From: Verrucomicrobiota bacterium
Lineage (GTDB): Bacteria > Verrucomicrobiota > Verrucomicrobiia > Limisphaerales > CANJXF01
DNA: 19,142 nt
NCBI GenBank assembly: GCA_038214755.1
Contig: JBBQRQ010000099.1
Span: forward strand, 1 to 19,142
Direction: 5' to 3'
Made by a program: the position numbers and the translations under genes
The notes under the pieces: generated by a model
What the model saw: the letters and a program-made list of their open reading frames with translations, nothing else
What the model was told of the DNA's origin: nothing
Databases searched by the model: none
Part shown: in pieces, positions 8,730 through 19,142 of the stretch
Numbering within the stretch: the first letter of the stretch is position 1
How the letters are laid out: the number at the start of each line of letters is the position of its first letter

Positions 8730-9302
8730 ATGAAGACCAACACTGAATTCGGATATAACTCGAAAATCGAAGGCGACGTTGTTGTCACACGAGTCGATGC
8801 CGCGCTCAATTGGTTTCGCAAAAATTCTCTCTGGCCGATGCCGATGGGTCTGGCGTGTTGCGCGATTGAACTGATGGCGGCGGGGGCCAGTCGCTATGAC
8901 ATCGCGCGTTTCGGTTCGGAAGTCATGCGTTTTTCTCCGCGCCAATCGGACGTGATGATTGTCGCGGGCACGGTCACTTACAAAATGGCGCTTGCCGTCA
9001 AAAGAATTTACGACCAGATGCCGGAGCCGAAATGGGTCATCGCGATGGGCGCGTGCGCTTCGACCGGCGGGATGTATCGCAGCTACGCCGTTTTGCAGGG
9101 CGTGGACAATATTATTCCCGTGGATGTTTATGTGGCCGGTTGTCCGCCTCGTCCCGAAGCGCTGCTCGACGCGCTGGTTCGGCTGCAAAACAAAATCGGT
9201 GGTGAACCGATTCGTTATCGTCCGCGCGATTCTGAACTGGTGGCTGAAACGGCACAGCCAGGCACACCCAAACCGGAATTTGAAGTTACGACAAAACAAT
9301 AA
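8730..9302 (+). CDS. nuoB: NADH-quinone oxidoreductase subunit B
   Basis: [53 protein letters not shown] (N2 cluster ligands). Confidence 0.98.
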
Positions 9303-9360
9303 ACCACGAATGAACACGAATTCACACGAATGGAATGTGCTGGGTAGGTCGCGTCACTCC

Positions 9361-9532
9361 AAGACTGTCTCAAAACTTCAAGAGTCGCGACGATTTGCTC
9401 CCTCTCATCCATCGGATGGAGGAGAGGGCTGGGGAGAGGAGGCTTGTTTTGTCCAGAATTCCCCTCTCCTCGGTCCTCTCCCCATTCGTTCCTCATGGGG
9501 AGAGGAAGAAAACAAAGTTTTGAGACAGTCTC
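9361..9532. mobile_element. MITE (non-autonomous, ~172 bp) with 17-bp perfect TIRs and a 5-7 bp target duplication
   Basis: AGACTGTCTCAAAACTT (9362-9378) / AAGTTTTGAGACAGTCT (9515-9531). (TC)ACTCC is duplicated at 9354-9360 and 9531-9537. Ends resemble IS5/IS1182-type termini (inference). Confidence 0.82.
9400..9505. repeat. CCCTCTC...GAGAGGG palindromic repeat doublet inside the MITE
   Basis: Hairpins CCCTCTC..GGAGAGGG (9400-9428) and CCTCTCCCCAT..ATGGGGAGAGG (9475-9505), with GGGGAGAGG/CCCCTCTCC between them. Confidence 0.78.
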
Positions 9533-9629
9533 ACTCCGTGCGCGCCGTCCTCGTCTTGCAAACCAGCGGCGCGCACGGAGTGACGCGCCCTACCAATTCG
9601 TGTTCATTCGTGTCTATTCGTGGTTGAAA

Positions 9630-10304
9630 ATGAGTGCCATCGACTTAGCCCAAAAACTTCAGGCGAAATTCGGCGAATTGGTTTCTGCGCCAACGGAATT
9701 TCGCGGGGAAATCTCGATCACGATTTCCGATGCGGAAAAGATCGCGGACGTTTGCGCGTCCGCGAAAAAAGAACTCGGCTTTGATTATCTGGTCGATTTG
9801 AGCAGCGTGGATAATTACGGCGACGATCCGCGTTGGACGTTGGTTTACGAACTTTACGGCTACGGACATCGCGCGCATTTGCGTCTGAAAACCAGCGTCA
9901 GCGAGGAGAAATCCGAGTTGCCGACGATCAGCAATGTCTGGCGCACCGCCGATTGGCACGAGCGCGAAATTTACGACATGATGGGCATTCGTTTTCGCGG
10001 TCATCCTGATCTGCGCCGCATTTTGATGTGGGACGGCTATCCTTATTTTCCGTTGCGCAAAGATTTTCCGCTCGCCGGCAAACCGAGCGAAATGCCCGAC
10101 GTCGCTTTCACCAACAAAGCTCCGATGGAAGGCGGGCCATGGGTGACGATTGCAGGGGGCAAGGACACCATTGCTCGCGAGCCGCGCGTTCGCATTCCCG
10201 GAACCGACGCTTTGGAAACAACGAATCGCGTCGAACGCCGCACGGACATCAAAGATTTGCACGGCCATTCGCATGGGCCGGGACCGATTGAGAAGAAATC
10301 ATGA
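9630..10304 (+). CDS. nuoC: NADH-quinone oxidoreductase subunit C
   Basis: FRGEI, FDYLVDLSSVD, ADWHEREIYDMMGIRFRGHPDLRRILM, FPLRKDFP. True start is MSAIDL at 9630; the ORF-track extension is repeat-derived. Confidence 0.97.
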   Translation: MSAIDLAQKLQAKFGELVSAPTEFRGEISITISDAEKIADVCASAKKELGFDYLVDLSSVDNYGDDPRWTLVYELYGYGHRAHLRLKTSVSEEKSELPTISNVWRTADWHEREIYDMMGIRFRGHPDLRRILMWDGYPYFPLRKDFPLAGKPSEMPDVAFTNKAPMEGGPWVTIAGGKDTIAREPRVRIPGTDALETTNRVERRTDIKDLHGHSHGPGPIEKKS

Positions 10305-10429
10305 AGCTTGAAATCAAAGCGATTTGGGATGGAAAAGTTTTTATTCCGCTAGAGCCGGTGAACTTGAAACCGGGCACGAAAGTTAAATTGACTGTTACAA
10401 CTTTGCCAAAGCCAAAAAAAACGAAATGA
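10301..10429 (+). CDS. AF2212/DUF104-like antitoxin family protein, 42 aa
   Basis: Hand translation MKLEIKAIWDGKVFIPLEPVNLKPGTKVKLTVTTLPKPKKTK fits the IxAIYxxGVFxPLEPVxLxEGxxVxI pattern. ATGA overlaps at both ends. Confidence 0.78.
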   Translation: MKLEIKAIWDGKVFIPLEPVNLKPGTKVKLTVTTLPKPKKTK

Positions 10430-10746
10430 AAGAGATCAACGAAACTTTGCTGCAAACCGTCACGCAACGGCTGGTCGCTGAATTTCAACCTGAGCAAATC
10501 TGGCTTTACGGTTCACACGCATGGGGCAATCCCCACGACGACAGTGACGTCGATCTTTTTGTCGTTGTGCCAGAGAGCGAGGAGACGCCGATCTCCCGTT
10601 CGCAACGCGCGCATCGTTGCCTGCGCGGTTTGCGGATGCCGAAGGACGTATTGGTCGAAACCCGAAGTGAAGTGAATCGCGTTAAAGAATCTAAAACATC
10701 TCTGGAAAACACGATTTTAAGTCGCGGCAGGAGGTTATATGGGTGA
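10426..10746 (+). CDS. Minimal nucleotidyltransferase (MNT) domain protein, putative antitoxin
   Basis: IWLYGSHAWGNPHDDSDVDLFVV (GS-x10-DxD), 106 aa, directly upstream of a HEPN gene. Confidence 0.92.
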   Translation: MKEINETLLQTVTQRLVAEFQPEQIWLYGSHAWGNPHDDSDVDLFVVVPESEETPISRSQRAHRCLRGLRMPKDVLVETRSEVNRVKESKTSLENTILSRGRRLYG

Positions 10747-11164
10747 CGCGCCAATTTCCGATGAAAAAGCGTGGGTGACCAAGGCTTGGCGTGATTTGGA
10801 AACCGCGCGGCGTTCTGCGAATGGCGAACCGCCATTCTATGATATTGCCGTTTATCATTGTCAGCAGGCTGCGGAAAAAGCGGTGAAAGCTTTTCTCGTT
10901 TTTCACGACAAATCCTACGAGAAAACTCACGACATTGAAGTGCTGGTTGATATTGCCTGTGAGATTGATTCCAGTTTTAGAAATCTTTCAGAGGCTGCCG
11001 ACGTTTTGACTCCCTATGCGACAAGGTTTCGATATCCCAACGCGACATTTGCCATTGAGCCGACGCCGTCCGAATACAACGAAGCGTTGAAACACGCTGA
11101 GGCTATTTATTCTTTTGTGTTGAATCTGCTGCCGTCAGACATGCGACCTGACGAAGAGAAATAA
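10739..11164 (+). CDS. HEPN domain protein (COG2250-like), partner of MNT
   Basis: WVTKAWRDL, YHCQQAAEKAVKAFL, KTHDI, YATRFRYP. Confidence 0.92.
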   Translation: MGDAPISDEKAWVTKAWRDLETARRSANGEPPFYDIAVYHCQQAAEKAVKAFLVFHDKSYEKTHDIEVLVDIACEIDSSFRNLSEAADVLTPYATRFRYPNATFAIEPTPSEYNEALKHAEAIYSFVLNLLPSDMRPDEEK

Positions 11165-11168
11165 TTAA

Positions 11169-12452
11169 ATGGCAACCACTGAAGAAATTCAATTTCGAGA
11201 TCCCGCAACGCGTGTTGCGGCAGCGCAACCGATTTACTCTGCTCCGGTCACGTCGCCCAACCTGGATTTGCCCGACATGCAGACCGAGAAAATGGTTCTG
11301 AACATGGGGCCGTCGCATCCGGCGACTCATGGCGTGTTGCGCATTGTTCTCGAACTTGACGGCGAAATTATCACGAAGGCGATTCCCGACGTCGGTTATC
11401 TCCATCGCGGCGACGAAAAAATCGCCGAGAACATGACTTACACCCAGTTCATTCCTTATACGGATCGGCTGGATTATCTCGCGCCTCTCGCCAACAACGT
11501 CGCCTACGCGCTCGCCGTGGAAAAGTTGATGGGCATCGACCAACAACTTCCGCCGCGCTGCCAATATATCCGCGTGATTTGCTGCGAACTCGCCCGCATT
11601 TCCGCGCACTTGCTCGGTCTCGGTGCGTTCGCGATGGATGTCGGCGCGCTCACTGTTTTTCTTCACACGTTCACCGAGCGCGAAAAAATTTATAATCTTA
11701 TCGAAGCGCTGACCGGCGCGCGTTTCACCACGACTTACACGCGCATCGGCGGACTTGCGCGCGATTTGCCGCCGGGTTGGATTGAGCAATGCCGAAAATT
11801 TCTCGACGAAGTTGTCGTCAACTTTGATGAATCGGAAAAATTGCTCACGCGCAATCGCATTTTCGTTGATCGCACGCGCGATATTGGCGTGATTTCCAAG
11901 GAAGACGCGATCGATTTCGGATTGACCGGCCCGAATCTGCGCGGCTGCGGCGTCGATTACGATTTGCGCAAAGCGCATCCGTATCTTTGCTACGCCGATT
12001 TGGATTTTGAAATTCCGGTCGGCTCAGTCGGCGATTGCTACGATCGCTATCTCGTGCGCATGGAAGAAATGCGCCAGAGCGTTTGCATCCTGCGCCAATG
12101 CCTCGACAAACTTCCCGACGGCCCAATCAACGTTGCCGATGGCAAAATTGTTTTGCCGAAAAAAGATAAAGTCCTGACGAGCATGGAAGAATTGATTCAT
12201 CAATTCATTCTCGTCACGCAAGGCGTCAATGCACCGGTTGGTGAAATTTATTTCGGCGCAGAAAATCCGAAAGGAGAACTTGGCTTTTACATCAACAGCA
12301 AAGGTGGCGGCACGCCGAACCGAATGAAAATCCGCGCGCCATCGTTCGTGAACCTGAGCATTTTATCGCACCTGCTGCCGGGCCACATGATGAGCGACAC
12401 GGTGGCGATTCTGGGTTCGCTCGATTTCGTGATGGGAGAATGTGATCGGTAA
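11169..12452 (+). CDS. nuoD: NADH-quinone oxidoreductase subunit D
   Basis: LNMGPSHPATHGVLR, GYLHRGDEK, YTDRLDY, ENPKGELG, KIRAPSF, DFVMGECDR. Confidence 0.98.
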   Translation: MATTEEIQFRDPATRVAAAQPIYSAPVTSPNLDLPDMQTEKMVLNMGPSHPATHGVLRIVLELDGEIITKAIPDVGYLHRGDEKIAENMTYTQFIPYTDRLDYLAPLANNVAYALAVEKLMGIDQQLPPRCQYIRVICCELARISAHLLGLGAFAMDVGALTVFLHTFTEREKIYNLIEALTGARFTTTYTRIGGLARDLPPGWIEQCRKFLDEVVVNFDESEKLLTRNRIFVDRTRDIGVISKEDAIDFGLTGPNLRGCGVDYDLRKAHPYLCYADLDFEIPVGSVGDCYDRYLVRMEEMRQSVCILRQCLDKLPDGPINVADGKIVLPKKDKVLTSMEELIHQFILVTQGVNAPVGEIYFGAENPKGELGFYINSKGGGTPNRMKIRAPSFVNLSILSHLLPGHMMSDTVAILGSLDFVMGECDR

Positions 12453-12459
12453 ATAAAGT

Positions 12460-12765
12460 ATGCCGAAACTTTATGAGTATTTTGGATTGGTGGTGTTTTT
12501 CTATACGAATGAACACGAGCCGATTCATGTGCATGGCGAGTTTCAAGGCGGACATGCGAGAGCGGAAATTTTTTTGAAAGACGGCAAGATTTTGCGGATC
12601 GTATTCTCGAACGTCAGCGGAAAGCGGCCACTTGGCGGGAACAAGATGAAGGATTTCCGAACCTTGGTTCATGCGAAGTCGGATGACATCGTCCGGCGTT
12701 GGATTGAATATTTTGTGTTCAAGAAACACAACAAACCGGAAATCATCACCCGGAAATTGAAATGA
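12460..12765 (+). CDS. DUF4160 family protein, putative TA toxin
   Basis: MPKLYEYFGLVVFFYTNEHEPIHVH N-terminal signature; paired with a DUF2442-like gene. Confidence 0.88.
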   Translation: MPKLYEYFGLVVFFYTNEHEPIHVHGEFQGGHARAEIFLKDGKILRIVFSNVSGKRPLGGNKMKDFRTLVHAKSDDIVRRWIEYFVFKKHNKPEIITRKLK

Positions 12766-13022
12766 AAACGCAAACAACAATCTATCTGGAAATCACGGAG
12801 GCGAAATATGTCTCCGGTTACAAAATCCGCCTGACCTTCAACGACGGAATGGTTCATCTCATGGATTTCGAGCCGTTTTTGCGAAAGGCCATGAATCCCG
12901 ACATCACGAAGTATCGGCAGCTTCGGAATTTCAAAAAGTTTCATCTGCATTACGGCGATCTGATGTGGGGCAATTTTGAAATGATTTTTCCCACCTCAGA
13001 TTTGTATCGCGGAGAAATTTGA
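12762..13022 (+). CDS. DUF2442 family protein, putative antitoxin
   Basis: ITEAKYVSGYKIRLTFNDG, DFEPFL, GDLMW, DLY; ATGA overlap with the DUF4160 gene. Confidence 0.86.
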   Translation: MKTQTTIYLEITEAKYVSGYKIRLTFNDGMVHLMDFEPFLRKAMNPDITKYRQLRNFKKFHLHYGDLMWGNFEMIFPTSDLYRGEI

Positions 13023-13067
13023 TTTTGCTGCGCAACTTTGGATTAAAACTAAAAAAAGGAAAATTAT

Positions 13068-13430
13068 ATGCCTGATCAAATTGTTTGGTGTGACATTCCA
13101 GTGAAAGACCTCGACCGCGCGATCAAATTCTACAGCGCGGTTTTCGGTGTGAACGTAGAGAAACAATCCTTCGGCGACATGAACATGGGCGTCTTGCCGC
13201 ACGCGGGAGAAAACGTGAGCGGATGTCTCGTGGTAACGAAAGAGGCAAGGCCTTCCGCTGATGGCCCGCTGATTTATTTGAATTGCGAAGGTCGTCTCGA
13301 TGCTGCGGAAGCCGCCGTCGAAAAGAACGGCGGAAAAGTTTTGCAATCAAAACATCAGATCGGGCCGTACGGATTTCGCGCGGTGGTTGTGGACAGCGAA
13401 GGCAATCGTGTCGCGCTGCACTCGAAATAA
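13068..13430 (+). CDS. VOC family protein (glyoxalase/bleomycin resistance)
   Basis: VWCDIPVKDLDRAIKFYSAVFG, GGKVL, GFRAVVVDSEGNRVALH. Confidence 0.93.
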   Translation: MPDQIVWCDIPVKDLDRAIKFYSAVFGVNVEKQSFGDMNMGVLPHAGENVSGCLVVTKEARPSADGPLIYLNCEGRLDAAEAAVEKNGGKVLQSKHQIGPYGFRAVVVDSEGNRVALHSK

Positions 13431-13432
13431 TT

Positions 13433-13675
13433 ATGAAACCCGTTGCTGAGATGACATCTGATGAAAAAGCGCGAGCAATGATCTGTATCAATGCCTGGAA
13501 ACGCGCTGGCCCCGAATTGGAAAAGATGCGACGCGACGACATACGCCGCGCAGATACAGCCAGTTCAATTCCTGCCTTTGACGGATTGTTCGAGAATGCC
13601 GTGCGAAATTTTCCTCCCAAGCCCACCTCGGGACTGGTGCAGCAACAACATTTCTTCCTGCGGGCAAAAAAATGA
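13433..13675 (+). CDS. Small helical protein, 80 aa, putative antitoxin/partner of the downstream nucleotidyltransferase
   Basis: ATG 2 nt after the VOC stop. WKRAGPELEKMRR and SGLVQQQ..F segments; ATGA overlap with the next gene. Confidence 0.72.
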   Translation: MKPVAEMTSDEKARAMICINAWKRAGPELEKMRRDDIRRADTASSIPAFDGLFENAVRNFPPKPTSGLVQQQHFFLRAKK

Positions 13676-14244
13676 CACGGCTTGTAAAACTGGCGGCGGA
13701 GATACAGCAGCTTCTCGATACGGAAGGATGGAAGAATTGTTTAATCGGCGGTTTGGTGCTGCAGAGATGGGGCGAACCGCGATTAACGAAAGACGTGGAT
13801 TTGACGGTGTTGACGGGTTTTGGCGGAGAGGAAGAAGTGGTGGATTTATTGATGGCGCGTTATTCGGGCCGACGACCCGACGCGCGCGATTTTGCGTTAA
13901 TAAATCGAGTGTTGTTAATCCAGTCATCCGATGGCGTTGGGATAGATGTGGCGCTTGGGGCATTGGATTTTGAAGAACGGGTGATGGAACGAGCGAGCGG
14001 CTTTGACTTTTTGCCGGATTGCAGAATGCGGACGTGTTCAGCGGAAGATTTTGTGGTGATGAAAGCATTTGCCAATCGTGACCGCGATTGGCTGGACGTG
14101 GAAACCGTGTTGATTCGGCAAGAGAACACATTGGAATGGAAACAGATTATCAGAGAATTAAAGCCGCTCTGCCTGTTGAAAGAATCGCCGGACATCGTGC
14201 CACGCCTTGAGAAATTGCGTTTGAAAATTATTGACCAGGATTGA
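13672..14244 (+). CDS. Nucleotidyltransferase-superfamily protein (AbiEii/DUF6036-like putative toxin)
   Basis: LIGGLVLQRWGEPRLTKDVDL (GG..R.T.DxD), SAEDFVVMKAFANRDRDWLDV. Confidence 0.85.
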   Translation: MTRLVKLAAEIQQLLDTEGWKNCLIGGLVLQRWGEPRLTKDVDLTVLTGFGGEEEVVDLLMARYSGRRPDARDFALINRVLLIQSSDGVGIDVALGALDFEERVMERASGFDFLPDCRMRTCSAEDFVVMKAFANRDRDWLDVETVLIRQENTLEWKQIIRELKPLCLLKESPDIVPRLEKLRLKIIDQD

Positions 14245-14245
14245 A

Positions 14246-14731
14246 ATGAGTTTCGTTGTTCCAGCCGAATTAGAAACCGAGTTGAACGAACTCGTGACGC
14301 ATTATCCGCAAAAGCGGAGCGCATCGCTGATGTTCCTGCACGCGATTCAGGAACATTTCGGCTACATCTCAAAAGACGCGATGGAGTGGACGGCGGCGAA
14401 ACTCGAATTGCAGCCGATCAATATTTACGAGTTGGTCACGTTTTATCCGATGTTCCGTCAGGAACCGGCGGGCAAATATCAAATCAAAGTTTGTCGCACC
14501 TTGAGTTGCGCGTTGGCTGGCTCTGGGAAATTGCACAAACATTTTTGCGAGAAATTTGGATTGGATTCCCACGCGCACGGCGTGCAAACGGGCAAAGACG
14601 GAAAATTCTCCGTCGAATTTGTCGAATGTCTGGCGAGTTGCGGCACCGGCCCGGTGATGATGTGCAACGAAGATTTTTACGAAGCAGTTACGGATCAGCA
14701 GGCGGATGAAGTTGTGGAGAAATGTAAATGA
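14246..14731 (+). CDS. nuoE: NADH-quinone oxidoreductase subunit E
   Basis: YPQKRSA, VTFYPMF, VCRTLSC and VECLASCG (2Fe-2S N1a ligands). Start taken at MSFVVP (14246). Confidence 0.97.
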   Translation: MSFVVPAELETELNELVTHYPQKRSASLMFLHAIQEHFGYISKDAMEWTAAKLELQPINIYELVTFYPMFRQEPAGKYQIKVCRTLSCALAGSGKLHKHFCEKFGLDSHAHGVQTGKDGKFSVEFVECLASCGTGPVMMCNEDFYEAVTDQQADEVVEKCK

Positions 14732-15204
14732 AGAAGCCTGCGCTATATCTTGAAACGTCGGTCGTCAGTTATCTGGTGGCGCGCCCTGCTCCAGATTTGA
14801 ACACCGCCGCGCACCAGCAAATAACGGTCGAATGGTGGGACACCAAACGAAAGAACTTCGATATTTACATTTCGAAAGTGGTGTGGAACGAGGCCGCGTC
14901 AGGCGACAAGGAAGCAGCGGAACGCCGACTCAAAATTTTGAAACCGCTACGAATGCTGCCCTTGAATCGCGAAGTTTTCTCGTTGGCCCGATCTTTTGGC
15001 GCGGCGGGTTGTGTTCCCCTCAAGGCAGCGGATGACGCCATTCACATTGCCTTGGCGGCGGTGCATCGCATTCACTTTCTGTTGACCTGGAATTGCACGC
15101 ACATCAACAACGTGGCGACGATTGAAGAAATCAGGAAGGTTTGCGAGAGTCACGGTTACAATTGCCCGGTCATTTGCACGCCGGACGAATTGATCCGAAT
15201 TTGA
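14728..15204 (+). CDS. PIN-domain (VapC-like) toxin
   Basis: LYLETSVVSYL, ISKVVWNEA..GD, DAIHIALA, LLTWNCTHINN, PVICTPDEL. Confidence 0.92.
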   Translation: MKKPALYLETSVVSYLVARPAPDLNTAAHQQITVEWWDTKRKNFDIYISKVVWNEAASGDKEAAERRLKILKPLRMLPLNREVFSLARSFGAAGCVPLKAADDAIHIALAAVHRIHFLLTWNCTHINNVATIEEIRKVCESHGYNCPVICTPDELIRI

Positions 15205-15207
15205 ATT

Positions 15208-15384
15208 ATGAAAGATCCAATTGTTCAGGAAATTCGAAAAATCCGCGACACGCACGCCGCGAAATTTAATCACAACTTTGACGCCATCGCAGAGGATTGG
15301 TTGAAAGAACAGGCCGCCGCAAAGCGCGCCGGACAGAAATTCGTGGATTTATCTACGAAGGCGAATGCAAATCGGAAATCGTAA
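15208..15384 (+). CDS. Small protein, 58 aa, putative downstream antitoxin of the PIN toxin
   Basis: Hand translation MKDPIVQEIRKIRDTHAAKFNHNFDAIAEDWLKEQ...; DPIVxEIRxIR-type N-terminus; starts 3 nt after the PIN stop. Confidence 0.78.
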   Translation: MKDPIVQEIRKIRDTHAAKFNHNFDAIAEDWLKEQAAAKRAGQKFVDLSTKANANRKS

Positions 15385-15398
15385 ATGAAGAATTTGGT

Positions 15399-15472
15399 TG
15401 ATGTGCCACGAAGATTTTTACGAAGCGGTTTCGAATGAGAAGGCGGAGGAGATTGTGGACAGTTGCAAATGA
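15399..15472 (+). pseudogene. nuoE: Diverged duplicate of the last 74 bp of nuoE
   Basis: 61/74 nt identical (hand count, no gaps) to 14658-14731. Encodes MCHEDFYEAVSNEKAEEIVDSCK* versus MCNEDFYEAVTDQQADEVVEKCK*. Confidence 0.92.
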
Positions 15473-15907
15473 AATTTCCGCTTAATCCGCTGAACTTGTT
15501 GCAGGAGTCGGCAATTCGCGTGGCATTAAGTGAAGCGTGGAAAGAATCAAAGCCCGCCTCAACAGGCGGTCACGAAGAAGGCGGCTTTATCGTTTTGGGC
15601 CATGAGGGAAAGGTCAGTGTGCGGGCCTTGGCGGAAAGGCGAAGGAAATTTGATTCGAGGGCCAGAACACGCCGAATGCGCGGTGGGAGGATGGGCGATT
15701 GTTGCCACATTTCACACTCATCCGAATATCGGGATGGATTTTTTGCAAGAACCGAGTGAGACGGACAAGCGTGGCGTGCGAGAGGATGCGAATTTGAAAG
15801 GCGCGCTTTATATCGGCGAGTTTGTGATTGCGAATGAGACAATTTATTTAATTACGCCCAGCGGCACGATTCGCGAAATCGGCACGCGCGCTGAACTGCT
15901 TCGCTGA
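15469..15907 (+). pseudogene. JAB/MPN-like (Tox-JAB/DUF4329-like) gene split by a +1 frameshift
   Basis: One frame gives MKFP...HEEGGFIV...VR and the next gives PWRKGE...VATFHTHPN...PSETD. Removing one G from GGG at 15623-15625 yields one ORF with the E...HxH...S..D motif. Confidence 0.75.
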
Positions 15908-15917
15908 GAGAAAATCT

Positions 15918-16184
15918 ATGGACATGACATTGACCAAAGAAGATCTGACTGACGAATTCGTCGTCTCATTGGCGCACATTCTCGCCATAGCCAATCGCCG
16001 CGCGCGACAACTGGGCTGCGATGTTTCGCAAAGCCGTGTCACCATTTCGCAGCATTTTGAGGGCGACTCTTTTTGGCGGATCAATTATGGCGCAAAAAAT
16101 CCGATTGCCCAACGTGGCGGGGATTTGATCGTCGAGGTGAACGCGGAAAATGCGGAAGTGAAACGTGTCTTGCGAGGACAATGA
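15918..16184 (+). CDS. Hypothetical protein, possible NTF2-fold immunity protein
   Basis: 88 aa, intact. C-terminal WRINYG...RGGDLIVEVNAENAEVKRVLRGQ; lies directly downstream of the JAB-like gene. Confidence 0.65.
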   Translation: MDMTLTKEDLTDEFVVSLAHILAIANRRARQLGCDVSQSRVTISQHFEGDSFWRINYGAKNPIAQRGGDLIVEVNAENAEVKRVLRGQ

Positions 16185-16201
16185 GCCAAGGCCAATGCGA
16201 C

Positions 16202-16232
16202 TCGTAAATCGTAAATCAAAAATCGTAAATCG
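16202..16232. repeat. Heptamer tandem repeat (TCGTAAA)n, about 4.4 copies
   Basis: TCGTAAA TCGTAAA TCAAAAA TCGTAAA TCG; a shorter relative occurs at 15369-15386. Confidence 0.8.
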
Positions 16233-16236
16233 AATT

Positions 16237-16310
16237 TGGCTGCCCGACATGGATTTGAACCATGACAAACAGATTCAGAGTCTGTTGTGCTACCGTTACA
16301 CCATCGGGCA
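16237..16310 (-). tRNA. tRNA-Gln(CTG), CCA encoded
   Basis: TGCCCGA/TCGGGCA acceptor stem, G73, CCA; anticodon arm ACAGA-CTCTGAA-TCTGT; T arm CATGG-TTCAAAT-CCATG; 74 nt. Confidence 0.97.
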
Positions 16311-16325
16311 GACCGGAGCGGGTCA

Positions 16326-16353
16326 AAGGTAAAAGATTGGTTTTGAGAGTCAA
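16326..16353 (-). promoter_or_regulatory. Candidate sigma70 promoter of tRNA-Gln
   Basis: Minus strand TTGACT (16353-16348), 16 nt, TACCTT (16331-16326), 15 nt upstream of the tRNA 5' end. Confidence 0.55.
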
Positions 16354-16443
16354 GTTTAGTGCTGGTAGCTGCGTCTCGTGAGAGCGCGGACTGACTGAAA
16401 ATAAAAGCCGCGTTGTCACCCACGCAGCCACATTGAAAATAAA

Positions 16444-17871
16444 ATGCCGCAACAACATCGGCTCATTTTAAAAAATATCGACGCGCCAGGTTACACGAAC
16501 GATCTCGATTGTTACGTGCGCCACGGTGGCTACGATGCTTTGAAAAAAGCCTTCGAGATGGGCCCGCGCATTTCGCCCGACGGCGGCACGGTGAGTGGTC
16601 CCGAAAAGATTCGCAAAACCGTTTTGGAATCGGGATTGCGCGGACGCGGCGGCGCAGGTTTTTCGTGCGGATTGAAATGGTCGTTTGTTGATCGCAAGAG
16701 CGGCAAACCGATTTATCTCATCTGCAACGCCGACGAATCCGAGCCGGGCACCTTCAAAGATCGGCAGATCATTTATAAAGATCCGCATCAGTTGATCGAA
16801 GGGATGATCATCTCCTGCTACGGGAACGATGTTCATCTCGCTTACATTTATATTCGCGGCGAATTTCCCGAAGGCGCGCGCATTTTGAAACGCGCATTAG
16901 CTGAAGCGAAGGCGAAAAATTTCCTCGGAAAAAACATTCTCGGCAGTGATTACGATCTGGAAATTTACATTCATCGCGGCGCGGGCGCTTACATTTGCGG
17001 CGAGGAAACCGGCCTCATCGAATCGCTTGAAGGCAAACGCGCTTATCCGCGCATCAAGCCGCCGTATTTTCCGGCAATTCTCGGCCTCTACATGTGTCCG
17101 ACCATCGTCAACAACGTCGAGACGCTTTGCCACGTGAAACACATCATCACGATGGGCGGCGCGGATTACGCGAAGCTCGGCACGCCGAACAACACCGGCA
17201 CGCGCATCGTCAGCTTGAGCGGCCAGGTGAAAAAGCCCGGCTATTACGAAATTGAAGTCGGCAAAGTCACTATCGGCGAATTGATCAATCACGAAAATTT
17301 CGGCGGTGGTTTGCTCGACGGTCGAAAATTAAAAGCCATTATTCCCGGCGGTTCTTCCGCGAAAGTTTTCAAAGCGGGCGAAAAATTTAAGCTCAAGAAA
17401 AAAGGCGCTGACGGCCAGATGACCACCGTCGAAGTGGACATGCTCGATTTGCCTTACGATTTCGATTCACTCCAGGCCGCCGGCAGCATGTCTGGTTCGA
17501 GCGCGATCATCGTGATGGACGACAGCGTGGACATCGTCGAAGCGCTCGCGAACCTCAGCGAATTTTACGCGCACGAAAGTTGCGGCCAATGCACGCCCTG
17601 CCGCGAAGGTTCGCTTTGGATGAGCAAAGCGCTCCATCGCATGACGCACGGCGAAGGCCGCAAACAAGACGCCGATTATTTAATCAACATCGCGCAAAAT
17701 ATCCAGGGCCGAACGATCTGCGCTTTCGGCGAAGCCTGCGCGTGGCCGGTGTTGAGTTTTGTGAAAAAATTTAAAGACGAATTCGAAGCCAAAGGTGCCG
17801 CCGACGAATCTCGCAACAAAGGCGCTGGCCCAACAAGCGAAATGAAAATCGCGGCCAGCCCGCAATTTTGA
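16444..17871 (+). CDS. nuoF: NADH-quinone oxidoreductase subunit F
   Basis: SGLRGRGGAGF, NADESEPGTFKDR, GAGAYICGEETGLIESLEG, NNVETL, ESCGQCTPCREG, TICAFG. Confidence 0.98.
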   Translation: MPQQHRLILKNIDAPGYTNDLDCYVRHGGYDALKKAFEMGPRISPDGGTVSGPEKIRKTVLESGLRGRGGAGFSCGLKWSFVDRKSGKPIYLICNADESEPGTFKDRQIIYKDPHQLIEGMIISCYGNDVHLAYIYIRGEFPEGARILKRALAEAKAKNFLGKNILGSDYDLEIYIHRGAGAYICGEETGLIESLEGKRAYPRIKPPYFPAILGLYMCPTIVNNVETLCHVKHIITMGGADYAKLGTPNNTGTRIVSLSGQVKKPGYYEIEVGKVTIGELINHENFGGGLLDGRKLKAIIPGGSSAKVFKAGEKFKLKKKGADGQMTTVEVDMLDLPYDFDSLQAAGSMSGSSAIIVMDDSVDIVEALANLSEFYAHESCGQCTPCREGSLWMSKALHRMTHGEGRKQDADYLINIAQNIQGRTICAFGEACAWPVLSFVKKFKDEFEAKGAADESRNKGAGPTSEMKIAASPQF

Positions 17872-17883
17872 TTTAATTATTCT

Positions 17884-18120
17884 ATGATTACCACAGCCCT
17901 TAAAATATGTATCGAAGCCCTGAGTCTGCCCCGCAAGTCACGGGCCGACCTTGCCCACCGTCTGCTGGTGAGCCTCGAAGATGAGCCAGCTGCGCCGGAA
18001 ATTGAGGATGCCTGGAAGAACACAGCCGAACGTCGCTTTGAAAATTTGAAAAAAGGCCAGACAACCGGTCGCGATGCGAAAAAAGCTGTGCGAGAGGCGC
18101 GCAAACGGCTGGCGAAATGA
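17884..18120 (+). CDS. Addiction module antitoxin component (TIGR02574-like)
   Basis: EALSLPRKSRADLAHRLLVSLE, IEDAW..AERR; upstream of a RelE/ParE gene with ATGA overlap. Confidence 0.88.
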   Translation: MITTALKICIEALSLPRKSRADLAHRLLVSLEDEPAAPEIEDAWKNTAERRFENLKKGQTTGRDAKKAVREARKRLAK

Positions 18121-18419
18121 GAGTGATTCTCGAACGCGAAGCCGACCAGGAAATGGTTGAAGCAGCGCAATATTACCATGAACAACAGCCCGAACTCGGT
18201 TCCGATTTTTTGGACAAGGTGGATTCAGCAATTGACAAGATTGCTTCCAACCCGCTTCGCTGCGCTTTTTATCGAGGCTCAAAGTTGGTTCGCAGCATTC
18301 GCATGGAACGCTTTCCCTATCGACTTTTGTTCGTGGTCGAGCCGAGCCGGATTTCGGTTGTCGCTGTCGCCCACCTTCATCGCCATCCCGATTTCTGGAA
18401 GCAGAGACTCCCTCAATAA
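18117..18419 (+). CDS. Type II TA RelE/ParE family toxin
   Basis: EADQEMVEAAQYYHEQQPELGSDF, RFPYRLLF, VVAVAHLHRHPDFW. Confidence 0.92.
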   Translation: MRVILEREADQEMVEAAQYYHEQQPELGSDFLDKVDSAIDKIASNPLRCAFYRGSKLVRSIRMERFPYRLLFVVEPSRISVVAVAHLHRHPDFWKQRLPQ

Positions 18420-18421
18420 CG

Positions 18422-19142
18422 ATGTCCACAGCACCAACAACTGAAACCAAACCCGCACCGCCGCCAGTCGATAAGATGAAAATCAAAATCGACGGGCGCG
18501 AAATTGAAGTGCCGAAGATGATGCCGGATTGGCAGGGCAAACCTCAGCCCACGACCATGCTGCAGGCTTGCGCGCTCGCCGGTCACGACGTACCGCATTA
18601 TTGTTATCATCCAAAATTGCCCATCGCCGGAAATTGCCGCATGTGCCTAGTTGAATTCGGCACGCCTGCGATGGGACCGGATCGCAAACCCGTTCTCAAC
18701 GAAGATGGCTCGCCTAAGATTGCGAAATCCGTTTTGCCTTACGAACCGACTTCGGCCCGCGGCGCGATTGCCTGCGCCACGCCGATTTCGCCCGGCATGG
18801 AAATTTATCCGAACTCTCCCGCGACCAAACAAATGCGCGAAGCGGTTCTGGAATCGCTGCTCATCAATCATCCGCTCGATTGCCCGATTTGCGATCAGGC
18901 TGGCGAATGCAAACTGCAGGAATATTCCGTCGATCACGGAAATGCGGGCAGCCGCTTCGTCGAAGAAAAAGTTCACAAACCCAAGCACGTTGATCTCGGC
19001 CCCCGCATCGTTCTCGACGACGAGCGTTGCATTCTCTGCTCGCGCTGCGTTCGTTTCACCAAAGACATCGTCGGCGACGACGCGCTCGGTTTCTCACAAC
19101 GCGGCAGCCATAACACGCTCACGAATTTTCCCGGCAAAACGT
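18422..19142 (+). CDS. nuoG: NADH-quinone oxidoreductase subunit G, N-terminal part (truncated by the window end)
   Basis: Hand translation: IKIDGREIEV, HYCYHPKLPIAGNCRMC, IACATP, HPLDCPICDQAGECKLQ, ERCILCSRCVRF; no stop before 19142. Confidence 0.96.
   Translation, partial: MSTAPTTETKPAPPPVDKMKIKIDGREIEVPKMMPDWQGKPQPTTMLQACALAGHDVPHYCYHPKLPIAGNCRMCLVEFGTPAMGPDRKPVLNEDGSPKIAKSVLPYEPTSARGAIACATPISPGMEIYPNSPATKQMREAVLESLLINHPLDCPICDQAGECKLQEYSVDHGNAGSRFVEEKVHKPKHVDLGPRIVLDDERCILCSRCVRFTKDIVGDDALGFSQRGSHNTLTNFPGKT

Follow-up and report, generated by a model that had tools for sequence, protein, structure and literature searches.

A probable stack of two cargo-slot alleles behind nuoE in the complex I operon of a verrucomicrobial genome

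Two units lie between nuoE and an antisense tRNA-Gln gene

We analyzed a 19,142-nt stretch of DNA (the window), which is contig C99 (JBBQRQ010000099.1) of a Verrucomicrobiota metagenome bin of 5.1 Mb, 175 contigs and GC 0.527. A Pfam scan of its open reading frames (ORFs) showed that the right half of the window is the complex I operon, on the + strand. Our subject is the interval between nuoE, encoding the 24-kDa subunit, and a tRNA-Gln(CUG) gene that lies antisense to the operon ahead of nuoF. This interval holds two units that have homologous borders and carry unrelated cargo:

14246-14731, + strand: nuoE, complex I 24-kDa subunit, 161 aa (Pfam 2Fe-2S_thioredx, 155 bits)
14658-14731, + strand: tail 1, the last 74 nt of the active nuoE
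14728-15204, + strand: PIN-domain gene, 158 aa, its start overlapping the nuoE stop (Pfam PIN, 30.2 bits; cut-off 23.6)
15208-15384, + strand: sORF58, 58-aa partner of PIN, its last codons entering the heptamer tail
15358-15394, + strand: 3' border of unit 1, a heptamer-motif tail and the pre-tRNA flank GAATT
15395-15400, + strand: TGGTTG, left over from the 3' end of a tRNA-Gln (on +, the CCA and 3 nt of the acceptor stem; compare TGGCTG at 16237-16242)
15399-15472, + strand: tail 2, which repeats the nuoE 3' end (codons 138-161 and the stop) in a displaced position
15469-15907, + strand: JAB/JAMM-like gene, coupled to tail 2 and frameshifted
15918-16184, + strand: orf88, 88 aa, partner of JAB
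16188-16236, + strand: 3' border of unit 2, a heptamer-motif tail and pre-tRNA flank
16237-16310, - strand: tRNA-Gln(CUG), the right anchor of the slot (ARAGORN; Rfam tRNA, 65.9 bits)

The elements named in an initial annotation of this DNA are all present where it placed them, and its counts for the two nuoE tails (61/74 identical) and the two 3' tails (25/29) were reproduced. By repeat search, the nuoE tails align over 75 nt (14658-14732 against 15399-15473, 83%), and the copies lie 741 nt apart. Homology begins exactly at 14658 and 15399; upstream of both points the sequences are unrelated. The frame of tail 2 is open: it reads MCHEDFYEAVSNEKAEEIVDSCK and then the stop, with no internal stop codon, where the nuoE counterpart reads MCNEDFYEAVTDQQADEVVEKCK and then the stop. 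The Pfam 2Fe-2S_thioredx match in NuoE extends to residue 161, the last of the protein. Twelve codons differ between the tails. These differences had been described as synonymous or mostly conservative; the nine nonsynonymous changes are indeed mostly conservative, but only 3 of the 12 codons differ synonymously. Tail 2 carries a His where all relatives' nuoE tails compared show Asn, Asp or Gly. The proposed coupling of both cargoes was confirmed, as each tail ends in an ATGA overlap with the gene that follows it, nuoE with PIN at 14728-14731 and tail 2 with JAB at 15469-15472.

The orphan tail also contains an ATG-started open frame of 23 codons (15401-15472) that ends in the ATGA overlap with JAB. 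A chain of translational coupling from sORF58 through tail 2 to JAB was rejected because the tail-2 frame holds a TGA at 15386-15388.

How unusual is such a match? Among the nuo gene ends compared with the rest of 9001-19142, the nuoE tail scored 61/74 off target and the other eight ends 31 to 38; we found no other duplicated nuo gene end in that region. As background, 37 of 40 random 74-mers scored 32 to 37, and the remaining three scored 41, 54 and 57. Across the whole 5.1-Mb genome, the tails match each other alone (49 nt, 87.8%, E 2.7e-7).

The point at which unit 1 meets unit 2 can be placed to the nucleotide. The last TG of the remnant TGGTTG also starts tail 2, and the junction is therefore 15399-15400, the very point at which homology to the tRNA end gives way to homology to nuoE. 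Microhomology at the joint is confined to this TG, with GTTG against GATG matching at 3 of 4 positions. Unit 1 spans nuoE codon 138 to 6 nt into the tRNA-Gln 3' end, and unit 2 runs from codon 138 to the real tRNA. GC is 0.505 and 0.51 in the two units, no different from the neighboring genes. The tRNA was the single Rfam match over 14000-16600, and a promoter and terminator scan gave consensus matches alone, at most about 2 to 3 standard deviations over shuffles.

The 3' borders of the units match over 36 nt at 83% (15358-15393 against 16188-16223). GAATTTGGTTG and GAATTTGGCTG agree at 10 of 11 positions when aligned across a 12-nt gap. The initial annotation took the 3' tail as a homologous border. 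The match is real, but about half of the 29-nt tail consists of the heptamer CGTAAAT, of which the genome has 31 exact two-unit sites. Because the motif occurs genome-wide, the locus-specific match is limited to the flanks (AAGGCNAATGC, 10/11, and GAATTTGGNTG, 10/11). Other families have similar heptamer tails ahead of tRNA-Gln in alleles that bear cargo (G042, L088 and G013). The idea that 3' tails travel with the type of cargo was rejected: the unit 2 tail scored 35 against G042, a PIN allele, and 34 against L088, a JAB allele.

In the window, (CGTAAAT)n lies at 15370-15386 and 16203-16229; the motif is dispersed in the genome, often as inverted pairs. An ATG-started ORF of at least 140 aa lies within 35 nt downstream of 11 of the 31 heptamer sites, compared to 207 of 3000 random positions. 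The motif is probably a promoter or leader element.

Assemblies support a contiguous tandem arrangement

Perhaps two strain alleles had been stitched in series by the assembler? The genome is, after all, a 175-contig metagenome bin, and our query did not find nuoE in most same-genus genomes (see below), so the locus may assemble badly. The assemblies of sequencing runs compared here come from Logan, which uses a k-mer size of 31. In X1, the one run that holds all sampled words and the probable source of the window, an independent k-mer assembly yielded a single contig (4497 nt) that covers 14300-16500 with 0 differences, and its depth is flat at 20.7. The X1 assembly showed no joint that passes over one unit or the other. 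The longest identical run between the two tails is 19 bases, too short to mislead a 31-mer graph.

A second contig with the same junction comes from X2, a run of another study. This 288-nt contig covers 15164-15425 with 6 differences at depth 3.2 and reads through sORF58, the tail and TGGTTG into nuoE-tail sequence, of which it has 27 nt. At this position the tRNA should follow in a single-unit PIN allele; the X2 contig instead runs into nuoE sequence, which is a hint in support of the junction. Between the second assembly and the X2 overhang, the contiguity across 15399 that the initial annotation wanted confirmed is supported, and we consider an assembly artefact highly improbable.

Past 15425, the X2 contig has 26 loose letters that by eye read MNMTLT, compared to M[DNS]MTLT at the N terminus of orf88 in the window, L074, L088 and L089. 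On this evidence, the X2 strain would carry the same junction with JAB deleted. Runs X4 and X6 (a small share) cover only the conserved parts of nuoE and the tRNA, and one contig in each joins 14689 to 16232; we take these contigs to stem from a relative whose slot is empty or nearly so, and they carry no information on habitat.

Of eight same-genus genomes, six (G002-G006 and G008; completeness 62-92%) gave no nuoE with our query. An operon so laden with cargo may be hard to assemble or to bin.

Relatives carry single-unit alleles and other cargo in the same slot

ARAGORN was run on 26 loci from relatives, and in 23 of them it placed a tRNA-Gln(CUG) antisense in the gap that separates nuoE from nuoF. 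Of the other three, G059 and G050 have no tRNA in the DNA fetched, and the contig of L074 ends too early. In the window's own assembly, the gene at 16237-16310 is the sole tRNA-Gln among 51 tRNAs found. We measured the slot from the nuoE stop to the tRNA 3' end in 29 relatives by fuzzy matching, which leaves an uncertainty of a few nt: it spans about 0-145 nt in 20 and about 600-900 nt in seven (G007, G037, G052, G013, G042, G012 and G057), and no tRNA was seen in two.

The initial annotation predicted that some relatives would have only PIN between nuoE and the tRNA and others only JAB. Both single-unit alleles exist, the former in seven genomes and the latter in L088, among the following slot contents:

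PIN and small ORF alone, from nuoE to tRNA-Gln: G339, G024, G080, G177, G012, G007, G042
JAB and orf88 alone, from nuoE to tRNA-Gln, with JAB intact and ATGA-coupled: L088 (3549-4264)
small ORF and DUF6036-like nucleotidyltransferase: G052, G013, G037
ClpP/SDH-like protease, 79-aa ORF and orf88: L089
orf88 alone behind nuoE: L074
cargo with no identity assigned: G057

Together with the near-empty slots, these bear out the further claim that the cargo of the slot differs among lineages. The nuoE stop overlaps the PIN start, as ATGA or GTGA, in G339, G024, G177, G042 and G080, and it overlaps the JAB start in L088 as at both junctions of the window. Two like units in one slot were found in none of the 36 relatives' loci.

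The nuo proteins of L088 are 75-79% identical to those of the window, and the locus has the same antisense tRNA-Gln; the record title, "uncultured Bifidobacteriaceae," is probably wrong. In L089, a Limisphaerales metagenome-assembled genome (2873-4264), a ClpP/SDH-like serine protease (289 aa) and the 79-aa ORF take the place of JAB before orf88, which is thus paired with a different protease. G007 (L031) has an extra 178-aa ORF between tRNA-Gln and nuoF, and that gap is also a cargo site.

Cargo changes hosts and keeps the slot

We built a tree of the window PIN with the best 29 of more than 200 PIN matches, dropping no fetched row. One genome, G009, is marked unpublished and counts in search totals alone. 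The eight slot PINs fall on one side of a branch, with weak support (76/74). Within the tree, the window PIN groups with those of G339 and G024, which belong to two other families (98/93). The PIN of the same-genus G007, in contrast, is only 52% identical to that of the window and groups with G012 (100/99), although the NuoE proteins of G007 and the window are 94% identical. The PIN tree disagrees with taxonomy; hence, cargo changes hosts and keeps its slot. Judged from these sequences, a change of host with retention of the slot is what recombination in conserved flanks would predict.

Can a breakpoint be seen within nuoE? One had been expected near 14658, and none could be resolved. Identity to G007, G001 and G058 is even over the 5' 412 nt and falls in the last 74 nt in all pairs, those between relatives included. 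Thus, G007 and G001 are 90.5% identical over the first 412 nt and 74% over the tail, and the corresponding values for the window and G007 are 91.7% and 81%. The last 74 nt of nuoE are fast evolving in every pair compared. Tail 1 and tail 2 differ by 18%, compared to 19% between the window and G007 and 26% between G007 and G001, and both tails look like genus-level variants. Each matches G007 at 60/74, and tail 2 is slightly closer than tail 1 to G001 (57 versus 53) and to G058 (58 versus 56).

Tail 2 appears to come from a working nuoE-JAB allele, because its frame is open and it overlaps JAB through ATGA as in L088. Two hints suggest that the PIN unit arrived second. The downstream JAB is decaying, and the remnant reads TGGTTG where the tRNAs of G001, G007 and the window read TGGCTG; TGGTTG is the sequence of the true tRNA in L089. 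As counterweights, JAB is absent or nonadjacent in 24 of 77 orf88 loci and so is often lost anyway, and the difference in the remnant is a single base, which is thin. Of the two, we favor the PIN unit as the later arrival, though only slightly.

One homologous and one illegitimate join may have stacked the two alleles

Our preferred reading begins with a slot. In this verrucomicrobial order, the stretch that runs from the last 24 codons of nuoE up to the antisense tRNA-Gln 3' end would be a cargo site within the complex I operon. Small two-gene modules would occupy it, with different ones in different lineages, and recombination in the conserved flanks, which are nuoE to the left and tRNA-Gln with nuoF to the right, would exchange them. 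In the window, two slot alleles were probably joined out of register by one homologous and one illegitimate join, which displaced the end of nuoE. In the illegitimate join, 6 retained nt of the tRNA 3' end from the PIN allele would have been fused to nuoE from the JAB allele at codon 138, the two sharing only TG. The mechanism may have been like homology-facilitated illegitimate recombination (HFIR), or a two-step route through a merodiploid and a later deletion may have left the same scar. As an outcome, the active nuoE would end in tail 1, translationally coupled to PIN, and the orphan tail 2 would lie downstream with JAB, which is decaying, and orf88. The initial annotation had proposed that recombination replaced the nuoE C terminus and added cargo. 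That proposal is supported in substance; its direction, with PIN incoming and JAB resident, is plausible only.

Formally, the structure is a tandem duplication, with the right end of a unit joined to its left end. Could an ancient duplication in situ, from the nuoE tail to the edge of the tRNA, have been followed by divergence of the borders and replacement of one cargo by a double crossover? The X1 and X2 strains share the junction, which is hence not brand new. However, this account needs two events, and it needs a nonfunctional copy to have diverged by 18% and yet retained its open frame and ATGA overlap. The junction of tail 2 with JAB moreover matches the working nuoE-JAB junction of L088, and the two like units that a duplication would first create are absent from the 36 relatives' loci. 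We therefore consider duplication in situ unlikely.

Stacking by out-of-register joins gains from two further, independent scars. In L074, a metagenome contig of 1725 nt with a nuoE that shares 88% identity with the window's, the stretch 1064-1725 reads nuoE, orf88 beginning 2 bases past the nuoE stop with no JAB, a 22/30 remnant of the tRNA-Gln 3' end, and then the start of a small ORF (MKTSLKDW...), which is the head of the nucleotidyltransferase cargo of G052 and G013. In G043 (L034), two Unstab/ParE pairs occupy the nuoF-nuoG slot, and the only DNA match between the pairs is one 14-nt hit. Between the pairs lies a 28-nt stretch that repeats the first nuoG codons at 27/28 (about 11046-11073 and 11634-11661). 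To judge from these sequences, stacks that retain a fragment of the adjoining core gene at their joint have formed more than once, in a different lineage and also in a different slot. The breakpoints are nuoE codon 138 with tRNA nt 6 in the window, tRNA nt ~25 with the post-nuoE spacer in L074, and nuoG codon ~9 in G043. Because they differ in each scar, illegitimate joins are a better fit than one fixed recombination site.

The tRNA remnants raise another question. Genomic islands commonly target tRNA genes, and elements of this type have truncated tRNA copies where they end; remnants of the tRNA 3' end lie at two junctions (6 nt in the window, 22/30 in L074). Did a small element insert site specifically at the 3' end of tRNA-Gln, its integrase since lost or acting in trans? 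The tRNA 3' direct repeats of integrative islands are typically 15 nt or more. The remnant in the window has 6 nt, and what follows across the junction is an internal part of nuoE, not a tRNA copy; the remnant in L074 has no second end visible. No integrase, recombinase or transposase Pfam domain occurs in the ORFs scanned across the 19-kb window, and no tRNA takes part in the G043 scar, which is at nuoG. An element of this kind is thus very unlikely.

Several observations nevertheless weigh against the joining of two alleles. No nuoE-tail duplicate occurs in the 36 other loci, so the stacked nuoE tails are a single case. The X1 contig tests the assembler and not the sample, because X1 is probably the source of the window. 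The overhang of the X2 contig, at depth 3.2, is below the 31-letter bar that the tool sets for bridging, and an exact search of metagenome contigs with a 23-mer across the junction gave 0 matches. Neither tail can be called resident because both stand at 60/74 to G007, and tail 1 is no closer to the tails of G339 (57/74) and G024 (55/74), whose PINs are the nearest, than is the rest of nuoE. No donor lineage has been identified in these sequence comparisons. HFIR uses microhomology of about 3-10 nt, and the 2 nt at this joint are at or below that range.

The scar resembles those of polymorphic toxin loci

Displacement of C-terminal ends, leaving orphan modules, has reportedly been described for Rhs and contact-dependent inhibition (CDI) systems. 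The likeness is close: there too, a conserved gene body has its 3' end replaced together with linked downstream genes, and the old 3' end is pushed downstream with its partner as an orphan that retains homology. As in such orphan arrays, tail 2 (61/74) and JAB plus orf88 lie downstream of the current 3' end and cargo, and the alternative 3' ends with their cargo occur singly in relatives (seven with PIN, L088 with JAB). In Rhs and CDI loci, however, what is displaced is a toxin domain, and the matching immunity gene forms the cargo. The gene in our case encodes a housekeeping subunit of complex I, the 24 displaced codons are the 2Fe-2S C terminus of NuoE and not a toxin, and the cargo is a free-standing, ATGA-coupled two-gene module of separate ORFs.

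HFIR is said to have been shown experimentally in competent bacteria. Like the event proposed here, it uses one homologous anchor and one illegitimate joint to place foreign DNA beside a conserved gene; in contrast, our case is read from a scar. A further reference on HFIR is PMC3240628. In Vibrio cholerae, effector-immunity modules of its type VI secretion system (T6SS) are displaced sequentially, and HFIR was proposed, according to Kirchberger et al. 2017 (PMC5361080). As described there, the upstream anchor is homologous, the other end is joined illegitimately, and the old module shifts downstream (PMC5361080). The same paper also describes immunity genes that are kept when the effector is lost (PMC5361080), to which the decay of JAB and the retention of orf88 would be the parallel here. 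Our locus differs from the T6SS loci in that it is a respiratory operon, has an antisense tRNA as its right anchor, and holds two units stacked.

We conclude that the feature is real, that the initial annotation read it correctly in substance, and that the proposed mechanism is of a known kind in an unusual place: the same end-displacement scar known from polymorphic toxin loci lies here in the core respiratory gene nuoE, and small toxin-antitoxin-like modules, set between complex I genes, are its cargo. Highly conserved operons could thus anchor recombination that moves accessory modules between distant lineages without a dedicated recombinase, and the scars are dated "fossils" of single exchange events.

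The two cargo modules

As a correction to the initial annotation, JAB carries a +1 frameshift near 15625-15629, which splits it into two frames, 15469-15627 and about 15629-15907. The HEEGG motif is in the frame of the ATG at 15469, and HTHPN...SETD is in the next. Intact homologues read through the region of the shift, G343 with ...LRVIRWPKGAGNVI... and L088 with ...NMRRWPTGEGNLI.... The Prok-JAB Pfam scores, 20.2 bits for the C-terminal part in the window and 18 bits for L088, are both below the cut-off of 25, and the JAMM motif E...HxH...S..D is present: in 40 aligned homologues, E36, H82, H84 and D99 are invariant and S96 is conserved in at least 90%. JAB gave three matches across 400 genomes of the order (G343, G265 and G114), none of them beside nuoE. 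Our sample of the order comprised 400 plus 60 genomes.

Homologues of orf88 occur in 77 of 78 fetched loci (L074-L151), from many phyla. JAB lies directly upstream in 53 of the 77 and 409 nt away in one; it is not detectable in 23, three of which have less than 240 nt of upstream DNA. JAB and orf88 are thus an uncharacterized two-gene module that is widely spread and in which orf88 outlives the protease.

Do the two proteins interact? A model of the L088 JAB-orf88 complex scored 0.87, against 0.01 for the best control. Among solved complexes, 116 of 157 attain this mark, as do 2 of 215 mismatched pairs; because the model was built from our own alignments, these counts apply only approximately. 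At least 98% of contacts are common to the runs, and the predicted local distance difference test (pLDDT) value of the partner is at least 88. No PDB sequence relative of JAB or orf88 was found, so the score does not reflect a similar known complex recognized by its sequence. In the model, the invariant R66-G67-G68-D69 loop of orf88 and its residues 83-88 face JAB E36, 82-86 and 96-99, that is, the catalytic site. The modeling supports binding of orf88 to JAB, and the predicted interface would suit a role of orf88 as inhibitor or pseudo-substrate, one that stays behind after the loss of JAB. Hence, orf88 is a probable inhibitor or immunity-like protein. Its predicted fold is one helix with four strands (pLDDT 86.9). 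No PDB structure matched this fold at E <= 0.001; cystatin-like and PepSY-like inhibitors are among the weak matches and serve as a lead only.

The other module invites comparison with VapBC. Its PIN domain scores above the Pfam cut-off, as a VapC-like toxin should, but there is no upstream DNA-binding antitoxin: the partner of PIN lies downstream and has no family match. For sORF58, no family was assigned by Pfam, NCBIfam or PADLOC, and NCBIfam and PADLOC gave none for PIN, JAB or orf88 either. A homologue of sORF58 is found downstream of PIN in the seven nuoE-slot relatives, with 35-81% identity.

Accessory genes occupy the other nuo junctions

The remaining genes of the operon in the window are as follows:

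8730-9302, + strand: nuoB
9444-10304, + strand: nuoC
10426-11164: MNT and HEPN accessory pair
11169-12452, + strand: nuoD
12460-13022: DUF4160 and DUF2442 accessory pair
13068-13430: glyoxalase-fold gene
13672-14244: AbiEii/DUF6036-like nucleotidyltransferase
16444-17871, + strand: nuoF (Pfam Complex1_51K and NADH_4Fe-4S)
17884-18419: Unstab_antitox and ParE pair
from 18422, + strand: nuoG

Could the whole operon act as an integrase-free cassette rack? In such a scheme, each nuo junction and the nuoE-tRNA-Gln gap would be a slot, toxin-antitoxin-like and defence-like modules would be swapped between families via the nuo genes and expressed through start/stop overlap, and out-of-register joins would stack them into arrays. 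We offer this wider view tentatively, and we doubt it more than we credit it. If it is true, selfish or defence modules would be tied to the expression of an essential respiratory operon. Full-text searches found no literature on accessory modules inside nuo operons, as judged by title or the start of the abstract.

Accessory modules occupy nearly all nuo junctions in 9444-19142, with 1-12 nt to the next nuo gene. In G058, G051, G017 and G049, none of the window's cargo proteins was detected. The cargo at nuo junctions differs in other relatives: G001 has DUF4160 and DUF2442 at nuoF-nuoG, and G007 has a second PIN at that position.

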